Shown: positions 2,252-42,791 of the stretch, in pieces
Numbering within the stretch: the first letter of the stretch is position 1
How the letters are laid out: the number at the start of each line of letters is the position of its first letter
Translations under genes and position numbers: made by a program
Sequence record: PZ445554.1
DNA from: a phage
Length of the DNA: 64,000 bases
Strand: one strand, 5' to 3'
The notes under the pieces: model-generated
The model's database searches: none
What the model saw: the letters and a program-made list of their open reading frames with translations, nothing else
What the model was told of the DNA's origin: nothing

Positions 2252-3211
2252 TCACTTCCACTGCATTTCGCACGCTAATTGAATGAAAAGATATGCTAAA
2301 TGTAATTCCGTATTAGCCGCAATTCCATGATACTGATTATTTTCACCAACAATTTCATACATACGAATAATACTTTGCGGAGTTACACGTGAATAGATTT
2401 CTTCGGCAAGTTTACCCACGAACCACGAATAATCAGCTGCATATTTTGGTGCTAAAGCTCTGAGTTGTTTAACATCTTTATTTTTGAGAGACTCAAGAAC
2501 ATCATCAATAGCACCACGATCGTTAGTAACCAGTGATAAAATACCAGCATCCAAAACACCTTTAGATGAATAACTATCGAGCTCGCCAATAGTTTTACGA
2601 AAATCAGGAAAATTCTTTTTAACCAAAGCTGCTACAACTTTCATATCAGTTATAGCAATTCCTTCATGCTTACAGATTTCAGTCAATCGACGAATCATCT
2701 GCTTCATCATTTCAATTTTATCTTCATCGGTCGGTTGACCGAATGTAATAACTCGACAGCGTGACTGAAGTGGTTTAATAATACCATCAATATTGTTAGC
2801 AGTAATAATAATACTACAGTTTGAACTATAAGCTTCCATAAAGGAACGAAGATGTCGCTGAGACTCTGCTAACCCTGAGCGGTCAAATTCATCAATAACG
2901 ATTACTTTTTGACGACCATCAAATGAAGCGGCGCTGGCAAAATTAGTCAAAGGACCACGAACGAAATCAATTTTACAATCTGACCCATTCACAAACATCA
3001 TATCAGCATTTACATCATGACACAATGCTTTTGCTACAGTTGTTTTACCTGTTCCTGGAGAAGGAGAATGAAGAATAATATGTGGAATCTTACCTTTACT
3101 TGTAATAGATTTAAAGGTTTCTTTATCAAAGGCGGGAAGAATACACTCATCGATAGTAGATGGACGATATTTCTGTTCAAGAATGTGTTCTTTTTCATTT
3201 ACGGTAATCAT
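2252..3211 (-). CDS. 44: Clamp loader large subunit gp44 (AAA+ ATPase)
   Basis: Walker A GTGKTT, Walker B IVIDEFD, SRC motif; 319 aa from internal Met MITVNEK (track ORF carries a 5-codon N-terminal extension). Confidence 0.9.
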
Positions 3212-3243
3212 AATTTCCTCATTCAAGTTTTAGTGTAAATTAT

Positions 3244-3261
3244 AAAGGGCCGAAGCCCTCT
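3244..3261 (-). terminator. Stem-loop (UUCG tetraloop) between 45 and 44
   Basis: GGGC-UUCG-GCCC flanked by A/U runs. Confidence 0.5.
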
Positions 3262-3262
3262 A

Positions 3263-3949
3263 TTAAAAATCGTGGGTAGAATCAGCTTCAAGAGCTACTA
3301 CATAATTCGCATGTTCACCTTCAAATTTAGCAGCACCTTGTTTACCTTTTGCCCAAAGCAGAAGTTTATAATTTCCTGGTTGCATTTTCATATTTGCCAT
3401 ATTGATAATGAAATTAAATGTATTTTCACCATCATAATCACCAAGAGTCAAAGAATATTTAACACGAGTCAGAGCAGAATCTTCTACTTTATTAAAACCG
3501 TTAATTACGATTTTACCTTCTTTTACCGTGATAGCAATTGTATCAATTTGCAGACCACGAGATACACGCAACAGTTGTTGAAGGTCTTCAGCTTTAATTT
3601 CAGTAACAACAGATGCTACCGGGAATGGAATTGGTTTATTAGGAGCAACTACTGTACTCGGATCGGCTGCTGGCCAAAAAATTGTTGAGCGGGCATCAGC
3701 AATTTTAATATTTCCATCTTCTGACTGGGAAATTTCTGCATCATCATTAACTAGAGACAGAATACCGAGAAAACCATTCAAATCGTAAATTGCTACATCA
3801 AAGTCAATAACGTCAGAAATATTTGCTTCCGCATAAGTTGTACCATTAACTGCACGAGTCATAATAAATTGACCTGATTTAAGCATAATACCAGAGTTAA
3901 TAGTAGCGAAATTTTTAAGCAGAGCAGTAGTATCTTTAGACAGTTTCAT
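3263..3949 (-). CDS. 45: Sliding clamp gp45
   Basis: 228 aa; sequence recognised as T4 gp45; conserved 45-44-62-regA-43 order. Confidence 0.9.
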   Translation of the reverse strand: MKLSKDTTALLKNFATINSGIMLKSGQFIMTRAVNGTTYAEANISDVIDFDVAIYDLNGFLGILSLVNDDAEISQSEDGNIKIADARSTIFWPAADPSTVVAPNKPIPFPVASVVTEIKAEDLQQLLRVSRGLQIDTIAITVKEGKIVINGFNKVEDSALTRVKYSLTLGDYDGENTFNFIINMANMKMQPGNYKLLLWAKGKQGAAKFEGEHANYVVALEADSTHDF

Positions 3950-30852: not shown

Positions 30853-31041
30853 TTAGTCCTTAGTTAAATTTTCTAAATATGTTTCTAAATCATTTTCAGC
30901 TTTATCGATAGATTTTACTAATTCGTAATATGTTTCGGCATCTCCATATTCAGAAGATATTTCAAAAGACAAATCCTTTTCTAAACTAATAATTTCACCA
31001 ACTAAAAATAATATTTCGTTCTTTTGTTCGCGAGTAATCAT
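30853..31041 (-). CDS. Small helical protein, family member
   Basis: 62 aa; MITREQKNEILFL. Confidence 0.5.
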   Translation of the reverse strand: MITREQKNEILFLVGEIISLEKDLSFEISSEYGDAETYYELVKSIDKAENDLETYLENLTKD

Positions 31042-31223
31042 AAGGAATTTATATAATTAATAAGTTCTTGTTCTTTATTATCGAATTCTTTAGAAAGTTC
31101 TTCGTACTCGTTTGCACTAAAAGGACCGCATTCATTACAAACTTTTTCCAATTCGCTATTTTTATCCATAACTTCGTGGATAAGAGAAAAGAGTTTGTCT
31201 TTTTGTTCTTTGCTTAGGCTCAT
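31038..31223 (-). CDS. Small helical protein, family member
   Basis: 61 aa; MSLSKEQKDKLFSL. Confidence 0.5.
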   Translation of the reverse strand: MSLSKEQKDKLFSLIHEVMDKNSELEKVCNECGPFSANEYEELSKEFDNKEQELINYINSL

Positions 31224-31393
31224 ATATTAATTTCCAGAAGTTTTAAAATAATTCGCTTTTGCTTAAATATTTCCATAGTTAAATGATCAGTATCTTTTTG
31301 ACCAATTCCAATGGCAAAACCTTTATTAGCAGCGAGTTCAATTAAATTATCAAGTTCACGTAACACTTCGTACTGTAACTCAGAACTATTCAT
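31220..31393 (-). CDS. Small hypothetical protein (57 aa)
   Basis: Below track cut-off; ATGA start/stop overlaps with both neighbours. Confidence 0.4.
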   Translation of the reverse strand: MNSSELQYEVLRELDNLIELAANKGFAIGIGQKDTDHLTMEIFKQKRIILKLLEINI

Positions 31394-31602
31394 TTCGGTT
31401 TACCTTCTTTAACGAAATCTGGATAAGGATAAAATCCCGAATAAAATCCTTCACCTTTATGATTGATGCATCCTTTATTAGAACAATAGCACCAATAATC
31501 GAAATCACAAGCCATTTCATCGTTGCATAAAGCAAAAACAACCGGCCACTTACACTTTTCACAATGGGCATTTTTAAGAATACTAGTTTGGCTCATAACC
31601 AT
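31390..31602 (-). CDS. Small Cys-rich protein
   Basis: 70 aa with nine Cys (CEKC...C...C.C...C). Confidence 0.5.
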   Translation of the reverse strand: MVMSQTSILKNAHCEKCKWPVVFALCNDEMACDFDYWCYCSNKGCINHKGEGFYSGFYPYPDFVKEGKPK

Positions 31603-31805
31603 GTCACCTTTAAGCAGTATTCTTCTACATGCTGTTTACGACCTTTCTTATCAATAAAGGTATATTCAACGAATGTTCCAATGTAGTCTTTATCTACATC
31701 ATGTGGACTATTAATTGGACATTTAGTACGGCAAATGCGTTCCCATTGACGAATAATTACTGCCTTATTCTTTGGGTCATACGGATGTGGATAATGTATA
31801 TTCAT
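31593..31805 (-). CDS. Small Cys/His-containing protein
   Basis: Start at first ATG MNIHYPHPYD. Confidence 0.45.
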   Translation of the reverse strand: MNIHYPHPYDPKNKAVIIRQWERICRTKCPINSPHDVDKDYIGTFVEYTFIDKKGRKQHVEEYCLKVTWL

Positions 31806-32269
31806 AATAACGGTTCCCAATCAACAATCACAATTTCTAATTTAGAGGAATATGTATCTAAAATCCCCTCAATAATATCCCAGTTCCCTTTACCTATGCC
31901 TGCACCAATCCTAGGCATATAGATTGTAGGTTTAATCAGTTTATTTTCACCAAACTCATTTAATTCTAACATACAATTCATTAAAGCGGAATACTCAAAA
32001 TTTGGCCCCGGTTGAAATTGAGTATAAAGATTGAAGCAGTAAGCTTTATGAGTCCTAAAGTATTTTTCATAGACTGAGTAAGAACCGAGTTTAGTTACAT
32101 CGCCCCATTCTGTCTGTAATTTATCAGCTTCCAAAATTTTAGGGAAAGCTTTGGTTAATTGACCCGCTACGCCTGAACCCATAGTATGAAAACAATTGCA
32201 TCCATGCGCAATATTTTTACCTTCAGCGAAAAGGGCGACAATATCGCCCTTGATATATTTTACAATCAT
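31802..32269 (-). CDS. Macro-domain-like protein (possible ADP-ribose binding or processing)
   Basis: 155 aa; GDIVALFAEGKNIAHGCN...MGSGVAG and IYMPRIGAGIGKG resemble macro-domain N- and C-terminal motifs; assignment by eye only. Confidence 0.45.
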   Translation of the reverse strand: MIVKYIKGDIVALFAEGKNIAHGCNCFHTMGSGVAGQLTKAFPKILEADKLQTEWGDVTKLGSYSVYEKYFRTHKAYCFNLYTQFQPGPNFEYSALMNCMLELNEFGENKLIKPTIYMPRIGAGIGKGNWDIIEGILDTYSSKLEIVIVDWEPLL

Positions 32270-32613
32270 CTAGTACTCAATCCTCGATTATAAGAATCTA
32301 CCAAACGGTCAACCATTGAATGACAAGCGGCTTTATCTTTCTCCTCCGCAACTGAGCATTCTAAGGTATTCCACTTTTTAGCATATCGTTTTAATAATGT
32401 ATCGTTTTTGTATCTGCTTGATTTATCTCTTTCTCCGTCTTTATATGCATATATTAATTTCTGTGCAAATTCAGCTTGGCATGCTTTATTTTTCCCACAA
32501 TAATCTGCCGCAGTGCGGTTTACATATTCTCTAATTTCAGTATATGATGTATCTGCTGATGCAGAAGCAGAAAATGAAATTAATCCTATACATAAAACCA
32601 AAATTTTAGTCAT
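32266..32613 (-). CDS. Secreted Cys-containing protein
   Basis: 115 aa with signal peptide MTKILVLCIGLISFSASASA. Confidence 0.5.
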   Translation of the reverse strand: MTKILVLCIGLISFSASASADTSYTEIREYVNRTAADYCGKNKACQAEFAQKLIYAYKDGERDKSSRYKNDTLLKRYAKKWNTLECSVAEEKDKAACHSMVDRLVDSYNRGLSTR

Positions 32614-33647: not shown

Positions 33648-33677
33648 ATTATACCACAGTCAAGAGGAAAAGTAAAC
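33648..33677 (-). promoter_or_regulatory. Early promoter upstream of regB
   Basis: GTTTAC-N18-TATAAT with TG extension. Confidence 0.65.
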
Positions 33678-36772: not shown

Positions 36773-37303
<531 letters not shown>

Positions 37304-37759
37304 TTAAAAGAGGTTGTTCATTATTCGGTAAAGTGAAGGACCCATCACATATTGCCACTGAGTACGAGGAATAAGAGCAAAAGCATCCATCTCTGGAATC
37401 ATAACGCCATCTTTATTTTCAAAATAAGACTCACAATAGCAATTTCTGAACATCTCATGCTCTACTGGAATCGTATAATAAAATAACTGTAAGTCTTTAT
37501 TACTAGAATATTTAAATACACCTAGGTCTTCTAGAAGGTCTGGATTATAATTGCTAAAACCAGTCTCTTCTAAGCATTCTCTTCGTGCTGCATCTAGTGC
37601 GCTTAAATCAGAATTTTCTACGCGGCCCTTTGGAATATCCCAACGATGTGCCATCATTCCAGGCTTACGAGAACCAGTAACCCGACCCATAAATAAATCT
37701 TTATCTTCTGTCATAAAGATAATACCAGCTGATAATGTTTTCATTTTAATTTCCTGCAT
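37304..37759 (-). CDS. nudE: Nudix hydrolase
   Basis: 151 aa; Nudix box GRVENSDLSALDAARRECLEETGF. Confidence 0.8.
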   Translation of the reverse strand: MQEIKMKTLSAGIIFMTEDKDLFMGRVTGSRKPGMMAHRWDIPKGRVENSDLSALDAARRECLEETGFSNYNPDLLEDLGVFKYSSNKDLQLFYYTIPVEHEMFRNCYCESYFENKDGVMIPEMDAFALIPRTQWQYVMGPSLYRIMNNLF

Positions 37760-41836: not shown

Positions 41837-41913
41837 TGGCCAGGGTGAAAGGATTCTAACCTTTAACCTGCGGTTTAGAGGACCGCTACTCTATACAATT
41901 GAGTTACACCCCG
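41837..41913 (-). tRNA. tRNA-Arg (anticodon UCU)
   Basis: Clean cloverleaf on minus strand, anticodon loop CCUCUAA, encoded CCA. Confidence 0.8.
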
Positions 41914-42039
41914 TAATTAGTTCACAGCAATACCTACTCCAACAATCAAGATGTCTTCACACGAAATTAAGAGAAGAGTGATCAGTTCAACCCCTATAAT
42001 CGCGTCAAGTAGATATTAATGTGACAACTGTCACAAGTT

Positions 42040-42114
42040 TGGCGGACGTGATAGGATTCGAACCTATAACCAATCGCTTAACAGGCGATCGCTCTGCCAT
42101 TGAGCTACACATCC
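42040..42114 (-). tRNA. tRNA-Asn (anticodon GUU)
   Basis: Cloverleaf GGAUGUG...GUCCGCCA, anticodon loop CUGUUAA, T-loop UUCGAAU. Confidence 0.75.
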
Positions 42115-42118
42115 AAAT

Positions 42119-42205
42119 TGGTGGGGAGTGGTGGAGTCGAACCACCCGAGTCGCAATGACAATGAATTTACAGTCCACACCGCTACCTCTACGGGATAAC
42201 TCCCC
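42119..42205 (-). tRNA. tRNA-Tyr (anticodon GUA), long variable arm
   Basis: Type II tRNA, anticodon loop CUGUAAA, overall layout like bacterial tRNA-Tyr. Confidence 0.7.
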
Positions 42206-42218
42206 CTAATTCGTAATT

Positions 42219-42293
42219 TGGTGACCCTGGGTGGAATTGAACCACCATCTGGCGATTATGAGTCGCTTGCTTGAACCTTCCAGCTACAGGGCC
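42219..42293 (-). tRNA. tRNA with anticodon CAU (Ile2 or Met)
   Basis: Acceptor GGCCCUG/CAGGGUC, anticodon loop CUCAUAA, encoded CCA. Confidence 0.6.
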
Positions 42294-42294
42294 T

Positions 42295-42370
42295 TGGTGC
42301 TGATTGACGGAATCGAACCGCCGACGTCCTCATTACAAGTGAGGTGCTCTACCTACTGAGCTAAATCAGC
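42295..42370 (-). tRNA. tRNA-Thr (anticodon UGU)
   Basis: Acceptor GCUGAUU/AAUCAGC, anticodon loop CUUGUAA. Confidence 0.8.
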
Positions 42371-42375
42371 AAAAC

Positions 42376-42465
42376 TGGCGGAGGCGATAGGATTTGAACC
42401 TATGAGTCGCCGGAGCGACTGCCGGTTTTCAAGACCGGTGCATTAAACCACTCTGCCACGCCTCC
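42376..42465 (-). tRNA. tRNA-Ser (anticodon UGA), long variable arm
   Basis: Acceptor GGAGGCG/CGCCUCC, anticodon loop CUUGAAA, 17-nt variable arm. Confidence 0.8.
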
Positions 42466-42467
42466 AG

Positions 42468-42541
42468 TCTCCGTGGCAGGATTTGAACCTACGACATTCT
42501 GCTCCCAAAGCAGACGCTCTACCAAACTGAGCTACACGGAG
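42468..42541 (-). tRNA. tRNA-Pro (anticodon UGG), CCA not encoded
   Basis: Acceptor CUCCGUG/CACGGAG, anticodon loop UUUGGGA. Confidence 0.75.
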
Positions 42542-42551
42542 TAAATTAAAT

Positions 42552-42625
<74 letters not shown>

Positions 42626-42630
42626 AAATT

Positions 42631-42717
42631 TGGTGCGAGAAGTGGGACTCGAACCCACAAGGAAATCATTCCGCAGCATTTTAAGTGCTGTGCCTTTACC
42701 AATTTGACCATTCTCGC
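42631..42717 (-). tRNA. tRNA-Leu (anticodon UAA), long variable arm
   Basis: Acceptor GCGAGAA/UUCUCGC, anticodon loop CUUAAAA. Confidence 0.8.
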
Positions 42718-42718
42718 G

Positions 42719-42791
42719 CTGGGAATAAAGGACTCGAACCTTTGCATCCTGGAATCAAAATCCAGTGCCTTACCAACTTGGCTAATTCCCA
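42719..42791 (-). tRNA. tRNA-Gln (anticodon UUG), CCA not encoded
   Basis: Acceptor UGGGAAU/AUUCCCA, anticodon loop UUUUGAU; abuts tRNA-Leu. Confidence 0.75.

Follow-up and report, generated by a model that had tools for sequence, protein, structure and literature searches.

The window, which is the whole 64,000-nucleotide stretch of phage DNA analyzed here (sequence record PZ445554.1), contains the T4 tk.4 (adfM) ortholog, which lies on the minus strand at 31802..32269. Its 155-residue product is a stand-alone macro domain protein that is 100% identical to T4 Tk.4, and alignments assign it a Gln-type active site like that of SCO6735, not a DarG-type (Lys) one. Tk.4 is probably a phage-made stand-alone macrodomain ADP-ribosyl-glycohydrolase that would cleave the thymidine-linked ADP-ribose (ADPr) made by DarT2 by a Gln-type route. 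The macrodomain identity of this protein and its anti-DarTG2 role are already known: Tk.4 was recorded as an A1pp/macro domain in 2006, and tk.4 was renamed adfM, for anti-DarT factor Macrodomain, in the HIDEN-SEQ preprint of November 2025 (bioRxiv 10.1101/2025.11.20.689424).

The tk.4 reading frame has an ATG start and encodes a protein of 17.5 kDa with a calculated pI of 5.9. It is clearly a genuine coding gene, since tblastn with Tk.4 finds relatives in 2751 phage records and both flanking genes are joined to tk.4 by ATGA stop/start overlaps. Upstream lies vs (32266..32613, minus strand), encoding the valyl-tRNA synthetase modifier, whose TGA stop overlaps the tk.4 ATG at 32266–32269; this overlap is consistent with co-transcription and translational coupling of the two genes. 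Downstream lies tk.3 (31593..31805, minus strand), whose ATG overlaps the tk.4 TGA at 31802–31805. It encodes a 70-residue DUF7202 protein with three Cys and four His that is also 100% identical to its T4 counterpart. A scan of the window between positions 30 and 35 kb for promoters and terminators returned sites no commoner than in shuffled sequence; a good match to a sigma-70-like site is found upstream of regB (33676..33648, minus strand).

The window phage is a Tequatrovirus, that is, a T4-like phage. Tk.4 shows 100% identity to ORF 60.5 of T4 X04567 by tblastn, and 100% protein identity over all 155 residues to tk.4 of NC_000866. Full-length identity, together with the placement of tk.4 between tk.3 and vs, puts the gene in the same orthologue group. 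The gene order tk ... tk.3, tk.4, vs, vs.1, regB is common to both phages and the flanks of tk.4 are ~98–99% identical at the DNA level, although between tk.2 and tk.3 the window phage has 367 bp more than T4, a cassette of two ORFs.

The genetic evidence on tk.4 comes from a single source, a preprint that is not peer-reviewed. T4 lacking both adfA and adfN had been found to remain resistant to DarTG2, so that a further factor was expected (PMC11825919). In a transposon screen of T4 on a DarTG2 host, tk.4 was the sole significant hit, and its clean deletion renders T4 sensitive to DarTG2 (bioRxiv 10.1101/2025.11.20.689424). The proposal in the preliminary description of this DNA that the protein could be a counter-defence enzyme acting against DarT-type systems agrees with this published role of the identical T4 protein. 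The same preprint gives the enzymatic mechanism only as “likely,” and a search of the literature open to searching turned up no assay of Tk.4 biochemistry.

Sequence profiles and the predicted fold both identify a macro domain. The Pfam Macro profile (PF01661) matches Tk.4 with 27.7 bits (E=2.9e-6) against a gathering cut-off of 22 bits, covering 112 of 118 profile positions (2–113). Searches of the PDB with Tk.4 alone (phmmer) retrieve BT1257 (1.3e-9), Poa1p (2.8e-6), DarG (5e-4), and TARG1 (6e-4), while a 54-homologue profile retrieves BT1257 (1.4e-17), TARG1 (3e-15), SCO6735 (8e-14), and DarG of Mycobacterium tuberculosis (1.3e-13), with BT1257, TARG1, SCO6735, Poa1p, and DarG all within 1e-17 to 1e-12. 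The AlphaFold2 model (pLDDT 95.7, pTM 0.90), with six strands and five helices, has the three-layer alpha/beta/alpha macrodomain fold. Its top 50 Foldseek matches in the PDB, all at a probability of 1.00, are macrodomains or designs on macrodomain scaffolds, and its matches include TARG1, Poa1p, BT1257, and DarG. DarG is the only NCBIfam model to match Tk.4 and the only PADLOC match (E=1.3e-9, 36 bits), in both cases restricted to the macro part of DarG. The macro-domain call of the preliminary description had been made by eye from the motifs GD, AHGCN, MGSGVAG, and P.IGAGIGKG, all of which are found in Tk.4, and it is confirmed by the Pfam, phmmer, and 54-homologue profile results and by the model.

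Both Gly-rich ligand loops are conserved among Tk.4 homologues, and the protein is predicted to bind ADP-ribose. The GD motif occupies residues 8–9 and the AHGCN motif residues 21–25, the latter including H22-G23-C24-N25 (32195..32206, minus strand), which was aligned with SCO6735 by hhalign. N25 also aligns with the Asn of PhiKZ AdfM that is altered in N23A, a mutation that weakens PhiKZ AdfM (PMC13309987). Gly-rich loop 1, M30-G-S-G-V-A-G36 (32162..32182, minus strand), is the putative macrodomain loop contacting ADP-ribose; its counterpart in alignments with TARG1, DarG, and SCO6735 is the MGAG/WGKG loop, and its G33 and A35 are invariant among homologues. The next segment, Y82-T83-Q84 (32018..32026, minus strand), was aligned by hhalign with TARG1, SCO6735, and T. 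aquaticus DarG and by hmmsearch with BT1257 and TARG1. Q84 falls where TARG1 and DarG have their catalytic Lys (K84 and K80, respectively) and where SCO6735 has its essential Gln85. Phosphate-binding loop 2, P119-R-I-G-A-G-I-G-K-G128 (31886..31915, minus strand), was located from alignments to SCO6735 and TARG1. Its G124 aligns with SCO6735 G128, while its G126 stands at the place of the second catalytic residue of TARG1, D125, a position that is Ala or Gly across the Tk.4 family. From these active-site alignments, for which hhalign and MAFFT were relied on, we infer that Q84 and N25 are catalytic.

SCO6735 of Streptomyces coelicolor (PDB 5E3B) and BT1257 of Bacteroides (PDB 2FG1/2AFC), the latter being the best PDB match to Tk.4 by sequence, are stand-alone Gln-type macrodomains of the TARG1 class. 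Like Tk.4 they are ~150 residues long, have no adjoining DarT, and contain the active-site H, N, and Q and the Gly of P-x-I-G-x-G. Tk.4 H22/N25/Q84/G124 correspond in hhalign to SCO6735 H24/N27/Q85/G128, so Tk.4 has the SCO6735 set of active-site residues, and these residues are kept in 114, 118, 119, and 119, respectively, of 119 homologues; Q84 is likewise present at 80 of the 80 best bacterial loci. SCO6735 is a hydrolase of thymidine-linked ADPr in DNA; mutagenesis, including data for G128E, shows that it needs H24, N27, Q85, and G128, the Q85A/E mutants being dead (PMC9411070). However, identity of Tk.4 to SCO6735 and BT1257 is only ~23–26%, and the two proteins have I-G-Q where Tk.4 has Y-T-Q, H-V/I-C-N-D where Tk.4 has H-G-C-N-C, and a 5-residue insertion after the Gln that is absent from Tk.4. 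Without this insertion Tk.4 does not have the extended central loop of SCO6735, and neither of the DNA-binding lysines K34 and K89 is present: K34 aligns with Tk.4 S32, and K89 lies within the missing 5-residue loop.

The Lys-type TARG1/DarG class supplies the nearest structure to Tk.4, but the catalytic Lys and the resolving Asp of this class are not found in Tk.4. TARG1/OARD1 (PDB 4J5S) heads the Foldseek matches (E=1e-9), has an hhalign probability of 98%, and has the P-R-I-G-x-G loop in common with Tk.4; it differs in that its catalytic K84 and D125 are replaced by Q84 and G126 and in having Ser35 where Tk.4 has Asn. DarG (T. aquaticus, 5M31/5M3E; M. tuberculosis, 5M3I) is of the same fold and class (Foldseek 1e-7, hhalign 97.8%). 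Nevertheless, DarG and PhiKZ gp104 carry a catalytic Lys and a Trp (FPTKKHW and FPTKDNW) in place of YTQFQPG in Tk.4, and the thymine-stacking W83 of DarG aligns with Tk.4 P87. Tk.4 scores only 30.3 bits with the NCBIfam DarG model (NF048014), whose cut-off is 250, over positions 2–146 of 338; by this coverage and the length of 155 residues, the C-terminal DarT-binding domain of DarG is absent from Tk.4. There is no DarT gene beside tk.4, whose phage neighbours are tk.3 and vs. PhiKZ gp104 is a true DarG-type protein and a distant relative of Tk.4: its match to DarG is at 9e-25, that of Tk.4 only at 5e-4 to 6e-3, and a BLASTP comparison of Tk.4 with gp104 yields an alignment of just 23 residues. 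In vitro, gp104 strips DNA of the ADPr that DarT2 has added (PMC13309987). DarT2-made thymidine-ADPr is the target common to DarG, gp104, and Tk.4, on biochemical grounds for the first two and on genetic grounds for Tk.4. The name AdfM, which gp104 also bears, now spans two only distantly related macrodomain lineages.

In the mechanism proposed here, DarT2, the host toxin of the DarTG2 defence, would place ADP-ribose on thymidines of single-stranded phage DNA. With this ADP-ribose bound between the two Gly-rich loops, Tk.4 would hydrolyse the thymine–ribose bond, releasing free ADP-ribose and restoring replicable DNA. By an SCO6735-like route, the Asn would place the Gln, which would in turn position the substrate or the transition state, and the attack would come from an activated water; Tk.4 is not predicted to use the Lys-type chemistry seen in TARG1 and DarG. 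Counted against the enzymatic proposal are the missing equivalents of TARG1 K84/D125, DarG W83, and SCO6735 K34/K89, as well as the pI of 5.9.

A non-enzymatic contribution is possible, since SCO6735 that has lost catalysis can still inhibit DarT through interaction (PMC9411070). That Tk.4 protects chiefly by binding without catalysis, either sequestering or occluding DarT2 or masking ADP-ribosylated sites, appears unlikely to us. Precedents exist in the DarG C-terminal domain and in the dead SCO6735, and in vitro inhibition of DarT has been seen with each of the inactive mutants SCO6735 Q85A, DarG K80A, and TARG1 K84A, SCO6735 being the strongest (PMC9411070); the absence of the canonical catalytic Lys and Asp from Tk.4 would also suit a binder. 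However, H22, N25, Q84, and G124 are invariant or nearly so down to ~35% identity, including in bacterial relatives without a nearby DarT, a pattern that fits an enzyme and not a toxin binder, and the DarT-binding domain of DarG has no counterpart in the 155-residue Tk.4. We give still less credence to a Poa1p-like role, in which Tk.4 would be an ADP-ribose-1''-phosphate phosphatase or O-acetyl-ADP-ribose deacetylase tidying NAD-derived metabolites, the DarTG2 phenotype being secondary. The yeast phosphatase Poa1p (PDB 6LFQ–6LFU) resembles Tk.4 in its N-terminal half and in the H-x-C-N-C motif (HSCNC in Poa1p, HGCNC in Tk.4), and it has the highest TM-score of the Foldseek matches (0.80), but the good sequence alignment (phmmer E=2.8e-6) is limited to residues 3–98, Poa1p has a Ser at the position of the invariant Gln of Tk.4, and its substrate is a small molecule. 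PHROG 335 and RefSeq apply the label “phosphatase,” which traces back to nothing more than the earlier domain name A1pp. A Pakpunavirus homologue lies beside NAMPT and PRPP synthetase, and homologues are found near Pnkp and Rnl1 in several distant T4-like phages, which would suit this role; yet there is no evident Tpt1/KptA-type source of ADPr-1''-P near tk.4, and the one phenotype found by experiment is specific to DarTG2.

As T-even phages have genes for three ADP-ribosyltransferases (references cited in PMC9503650), Tk.4 could be imagined to erase ADP-ribosylation of protein or RNA, whether the phage's own Alt/ModA/ModB marks or those of other defences such as CmdTAC, or to degrade Thoeris-type signals. 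Against this role, Alt and Mod modify arginine, and macrodomains are not known to cleave the arginine-ADPr linkage. In its favor, SCO6735 and TARG1 act on Asp/Glu-ADPr proteins as well, removing the modification (PMC9411070), and uracil-ADPr on RNA is reversed by TARG1-like macrodomains (PMC13036486). However, CmdTAC strongly defends against wild-type T4, which carries tk.4 (PMC11618068), and we regard this reading, including the regulator role and the action on Thoeris-type systems raised in the preliminary description, as unsupported and very improbable.

The preliminary description had placed the macro-domain protein next to Cys-rich small proteins. The adjacency is real, with three Cys in Tk.3 and seven in the following ORF, but the functional link that it implied is unsupported. 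The 367-bp cassette (31225..31591, minus strand) is missing at this place in T4, as seen from an indel in the blastn comparison of the window with T4. Its two ORFs, which belong to PHROGs 2306 and 3452, encode 57 residues (31220..31393, minus strand) and a 70-residue Phage_zn_bind protein (Pfam PF23895) with seven Cys (31390..31602, minus strand), the latter being the next gene after tk.3. The cassette is found in 444 phage records. A link between the macrodomain and the Cys-rich neighbours was rejected because the 7-Cys ORF cassette is absent from T4, whose Tk.4 works, because the DarTG2 screen yielded no hit besides tk.4, and because the neighbours of Tk.4 homologues differ in a Vequintavirus, a Felixounavirus, a Pakpunavirus, and a Vibrio T4-like phage. 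In slur16 one unrelated Zn-binding family (PF23903) is found two genes from the Tk.4 homologue, the sole such case in the distant phages compared.

In bacteria, the relatives of Tk.4 are stand-alone proteins of ~150 residues, and the genes around them are a varied set of housekeeping genes. At the 80 best bacterial loci, tblastn with a single DarT2 query, a search of limited sensitivity, found no match within 4 kb. An origin of Tk.4 as an orphan DarG antitoxin is unsupported, given that Tk.4 does not qualify as a DarG and that its bacterial relatives have no DarT2 within 4 kb by that one query. The homologues labelled as bacterial (MAG Bacilli and Culicoidibacterales) both actually lie on T4-like phage contigs that carry Rnl1, Pnkp, a Dda-like helicase, and dCMP deaminase.

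We tentatively suggest that the T4-type and PhiKZ-type AdfM proteins could have been recruited independently to one counter-defence role, gp104 being a truncated DarG-type (Lys) antitoxin macrodomain and Tk.4 descending from an extensive bacterial family of Gln-type stand-alone proteins. As part of this same speculative reading, Tk.4 may be a broad-spectrum ADP-ribose eraser that protects beyond DarTG2, since its closest characterised relatives, SCO6735 and TARG1-like proteins, also cleave Asp/Glu-ADPr proteins and uracil-ADPr RNA. If this is true, T-even phages with Tk.4 could resist ADP-ribosyltransferase defences that target RNA or protein. Phage enzymes that erase the ADP-ribose mark set host range and are therefore relevant to the choice and engineering of therapeutic T4-like phages.

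The tk.4 gene (31802..32269, minus strand) is an ATG-initiated ORF of 155 codons, with GAGGA located 11 nt 5′ of the start codon, and encodes a 17.5 kDa protein with a pI of 5.9. All of the macro-domain motifs quoted in the preliminary description are present: GD (residues 8–9), AHGCN (21–25), MGSGVAG (30–36), and PRIGAGIGKG (119–128). The protein has been described before as T4 Tk.4/AdfM (NP_049723; “ORF 60.5” of X04567), to which it is 100% identical. RefSeq labels the T4 protein “phosphatase; contains A1pp phosphatase motif,” and other records use “macro domain protein” or “Poa1p-like family protein.” The phage is a Tequatrovirus with approximately 96–97% identity over 20 kb to JK38, teqskov, and KAW1E185. 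Its minus-strand genes run tk, tk.1, tk.2, two additional small ORFs, tk.3, tk.4, vs, vs.1 (SLT domain), and regB, with stop and start codons overlapping as ATGA at both vs/tk.4 (32266–32269) and tk.4/tk.3 (31802–31805). A good sigma-70-like match (TTTACT, a 17-nt spacer with TG, TATAAT) lies just upstream of regB at 33676..33648 (minus strand) and may drive the co-directional regB-vs.1-vs-tk.4 run; across the 30–35 kb region scanned, promoter-like sites overall did not exceed the frequency seen in shuffled sequence.

Four independent routes identify Tk.4 as a macro domain, bearing out an assignment first made here by eye and present in the literature for tk.4 orthologues since 2006 (PMC1524935). 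The Pfam Macro profile (PF01661) matches at 27.7 bits (gathering cut-off 22; E = 2.9e-6) over 112 of its 118 positions. In a phmmer search of all PDB chains, nothing but macrodomains matched at E<0.01, including BT1257 (1.3e-9), Poa1p (2.8e-6), SCO6735 (3.3e-4), Taq DarG (5.2e-4), and TARG1 (6e-4). A profile built from 54 Tk.4 homologues gave stronger matches (BT1257, 1.4e-17; TARG1, 3e-15; SCO6735, 8e-14; Poa1p, 1e-13; Mtb DarG, 1.3e-13). The AlphaFold2 model based on the same alignment is very confident (pLDDT 95.7, pTM 0.90), and its best Foldseek matches in the PDB are macrodomain structures rather than an unrelated fold: TARG1 (1e-9), Poa1p, BT1257, Taq and Mtb DarG, and SCO6735, each with a probability of 1.00. 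In NCBIfam (30 bits) and likewise in PADLOC (36 bits, E = 1.3e-9), DarG is the sole model matching Tk.4, in each case through its N-terminal macro part only.

The suggestion that this protein counters DarT-type defenses has been published for the identical T4 protein. T4 lacking both adfA and adfN is still resistant to DarTG2, from which a further factor was predicted (PMC11825919). In a HIDEN-SEQ preprint of November 2025, a T4 transposon library on a DarTG2-expressing host yielded one significant gene, tk.4; a clean knockout was DarTG2-sensitive, the gene was renamed adfM, and enzymatic removal of ADP-ribose from DNA by AdfM was described as one that “seems likely” (bioRxiv 10.1101/2025.11.20.689424).

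The active site offers a more specific reading. In profile-profile and profile-sequence alignments, T83-Q84 of Tk.4 falls on T83-K84 of TARG1, and it likewise aligns with T79-K80 of Taq DarG; the catalytic lysine of the class is therefore glutamine in Tk.4. The second catalytic residue of TARG1, D125, corresponds to G126, and the base-stacking W83 of DarG to P87. All 119 homologues, with identities as low as approximately 35%, keep Q84. In 185,579 genomes of bacteria and archaea, we found at least 525 loci with Tk.4-like proteins; the best 80 of these, at 35–43% identity, are nearly all stand-alone ORFs of approximately 150 aa, and Q84 is present in all 80 bacterial loci, which were fetched by patterns not containing this residue. 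One DarT2 query (E≤1) found no match within 4 kb of any of the best 80, and neighbors at sampled loci were unrelated housekeeping genes, with an integrase in one case.

A precedent for glutamine exists in SCO6735, a stand-alone macrodomain from Streptomyces coelicolor that cleaves thymidine-linked ADP-ribose on DNA, where Asn27 is thought to fix Gln85 in the correct rotamer, G128E impairs activity, and an activated water has been proposed as the nucleophile (PMC9967889, PMC9411070). When its PDB sequence was aligned to the Tk.4 family, also with MAFFT, H24, N27, Q85, and G128 corresponded to H22, N25, Q84, and G124 of Tk.4; at the sequence level the two active-site arrangements match. An I-G-Q-H-G motif is common to SCO6735 and BT1257, the best PDB sequence match. 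Tk.4 differs in lacking the five-residue insertion that follows the glutamine in SCO6735 (and includes K89), and in having S32 in place of K34. Our preferred reading is that Tk.4 is a TARG1-class hydrolase of the Gln type, the substrate of which would be dT-ADPr in DNA; the fold, the identity to T4 Tk.4, and the DarTG2 genetics are shown, whereas the catalytic chemistry is inferred.

Inhibition of DarT2 without catalysis is plausible as a side contribution, given that catalytically dead SCO6735 inhibits DarT (PMC9411070), although strict conservation of the catalytic-site residues in bacterial relatives with no DarT2 match within 4 kb speaks for an enzyme. It is very improbable that Tk.4 is instead a Poa1p-like small-molecule phosphatase or deacetylase: the two share an HxCNC motif and some Tk.4 homologues lie near NAD-salvage or RNA-repair genes, but Poa1p lacks the glutamine and the sole phenotype found for tk.4 is DarTG2-specific. 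We give equally little credence to the proposal that Tk.4 erases the phage's own Alt/Mod marks or counters other ADP-ribose-based defenses. Alt and Mod modify arginine, and cleavage of arginine-ADPr is not a known macrodomain activity; wild-type T4 is still blocked by CmdTAC (PMC11618068). On the other side, U-ADPr on RNA is reversed by TARG1-like enzymes (PMC13036486), which makes a wider substrate range conceivable, and by this analogy Tk.4 may possibly act on substrates beyond dT-ADPr. A 151-aa Nudix protein (37304..37759, minus strand), at the position of T4 e.1/NudE.1 and adjoining the lysozyme gene e (36773..37267), could dispose of the free ADP-ribose that the macrodomain releases; activity of T4 NudE.1 on ADP-ribose is stated in the title of Xu et al. 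2002, a reference of PMC1524935.

Homologues in other phages occur in varied settings. In distant T4-like phages, represented by Vibrio phage CZ01 and two further loci, the homologue lies near Pnkp (PseT), Rnl1, and a Dda-like helicase, which is not so in T4. The two further loci are on T4-like phage contigs binned into MAGs labeled Bacilli and Culicoidibacterales, and two GenBank MAG records thus contain phage DNA. In Pseudomonas phage PsIn (Pakpunavirus; NC_073622, 71196–76669; neighborhood at 607–2980 of the extracted locus), the macrodomain gene is one small ORF downstream of genes for nicotinamide phosphoribosyltransferase and a PRPP-synthetase-family protein, an arrangement that points to a connection with NAD salvage in this lineage. 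The homologue of Escherichia typing phage 1 (KP869100, Felixounavirus; locus 2495–3280) has 261 aa, with the macro domain at residues 25–141 followed by a C-terminal extension of approximately 110 aa that has no Pfam match.

The adjacency of Cys-rich small proteins to tk.4 holds, whereas a functional link to the macrodomain finds no support. Tk.3 (DUF7202; 3 Cys, 4 His; 31593..31805, minus strand) overlaps the tk.4 stop codon and is followed by a 70-aa protein with 7 Cys (Phage_zn_bind PF23895, phrog_2306; 31390..31602, minus strand) and a 57-aa ORF (phrog_3452; 31220..31393, minus strand), all three in PHROGs of unknown function. The latter two ORFs lie in a 367-bp two-gene segment (31225–31591) between tk.2 and tk.3 that is found in 444 phage records, is absent from T4 at this position, and constitutes a small hyperplastic spot. 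A functional tie was rejected because T4 lacks this cassette yet has a functional Tk.4, the DarTG2 screen gave tk.4 alone, and other genes adjoin homologues in distant phages. Tk.1 and Tk.2 (30853..31041 and 31038..31223, minus strand; both DUF7438, phrog_653) are tandem paralogues of approximately 61 aa with a 4-nt overlap. Copy number differs among relatives: the interval from tk to tk.4 holds only four small genes in bov10K1 but five in the window. Elsewhere, ten tRNA genes (Arg, Asn, Tyr, Met, Thr, Ser, Pro, Gly, Leu, Gln) occupy 41837–42791 (minus strand). T4 has eight, so this phage appears to carry additional genes (Asn, Tyr, Met).

Another group independently chose the name AdfM for PhiKZ gp104, which strips DarT2-made ADP-ribose from ssDNA in vitro, an activity weakened by N23A (Cell Reports 2026, PMC13309987). 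This protein matches the DarG macrodomains strongly (Mtb, 9e-25; Taq, 3e-19) and contains their F-P-T-K-x-x-W motif, whereas Tk.4 reaches only 6e-3 (Mtb) and 5e-4 (Taq) against the same chains. Between Tk.4 and gp104, BLASTP aligned 23 residues (E = 0.005) and hhalign gave 96% probability. These comparisons mark gp104, and not Tk.4, as a DarG-type “orphan antitoxin.” AdfM thus covers two distantly related macrodomain lineages, those of gp104 (DarG-type, Lys) and Tk.4 (Gln-type). The shared name is a nomenclature trap when annotation is transferred, and the Gln-type active site is the single point at which this analysis exceeds the existing annotation.
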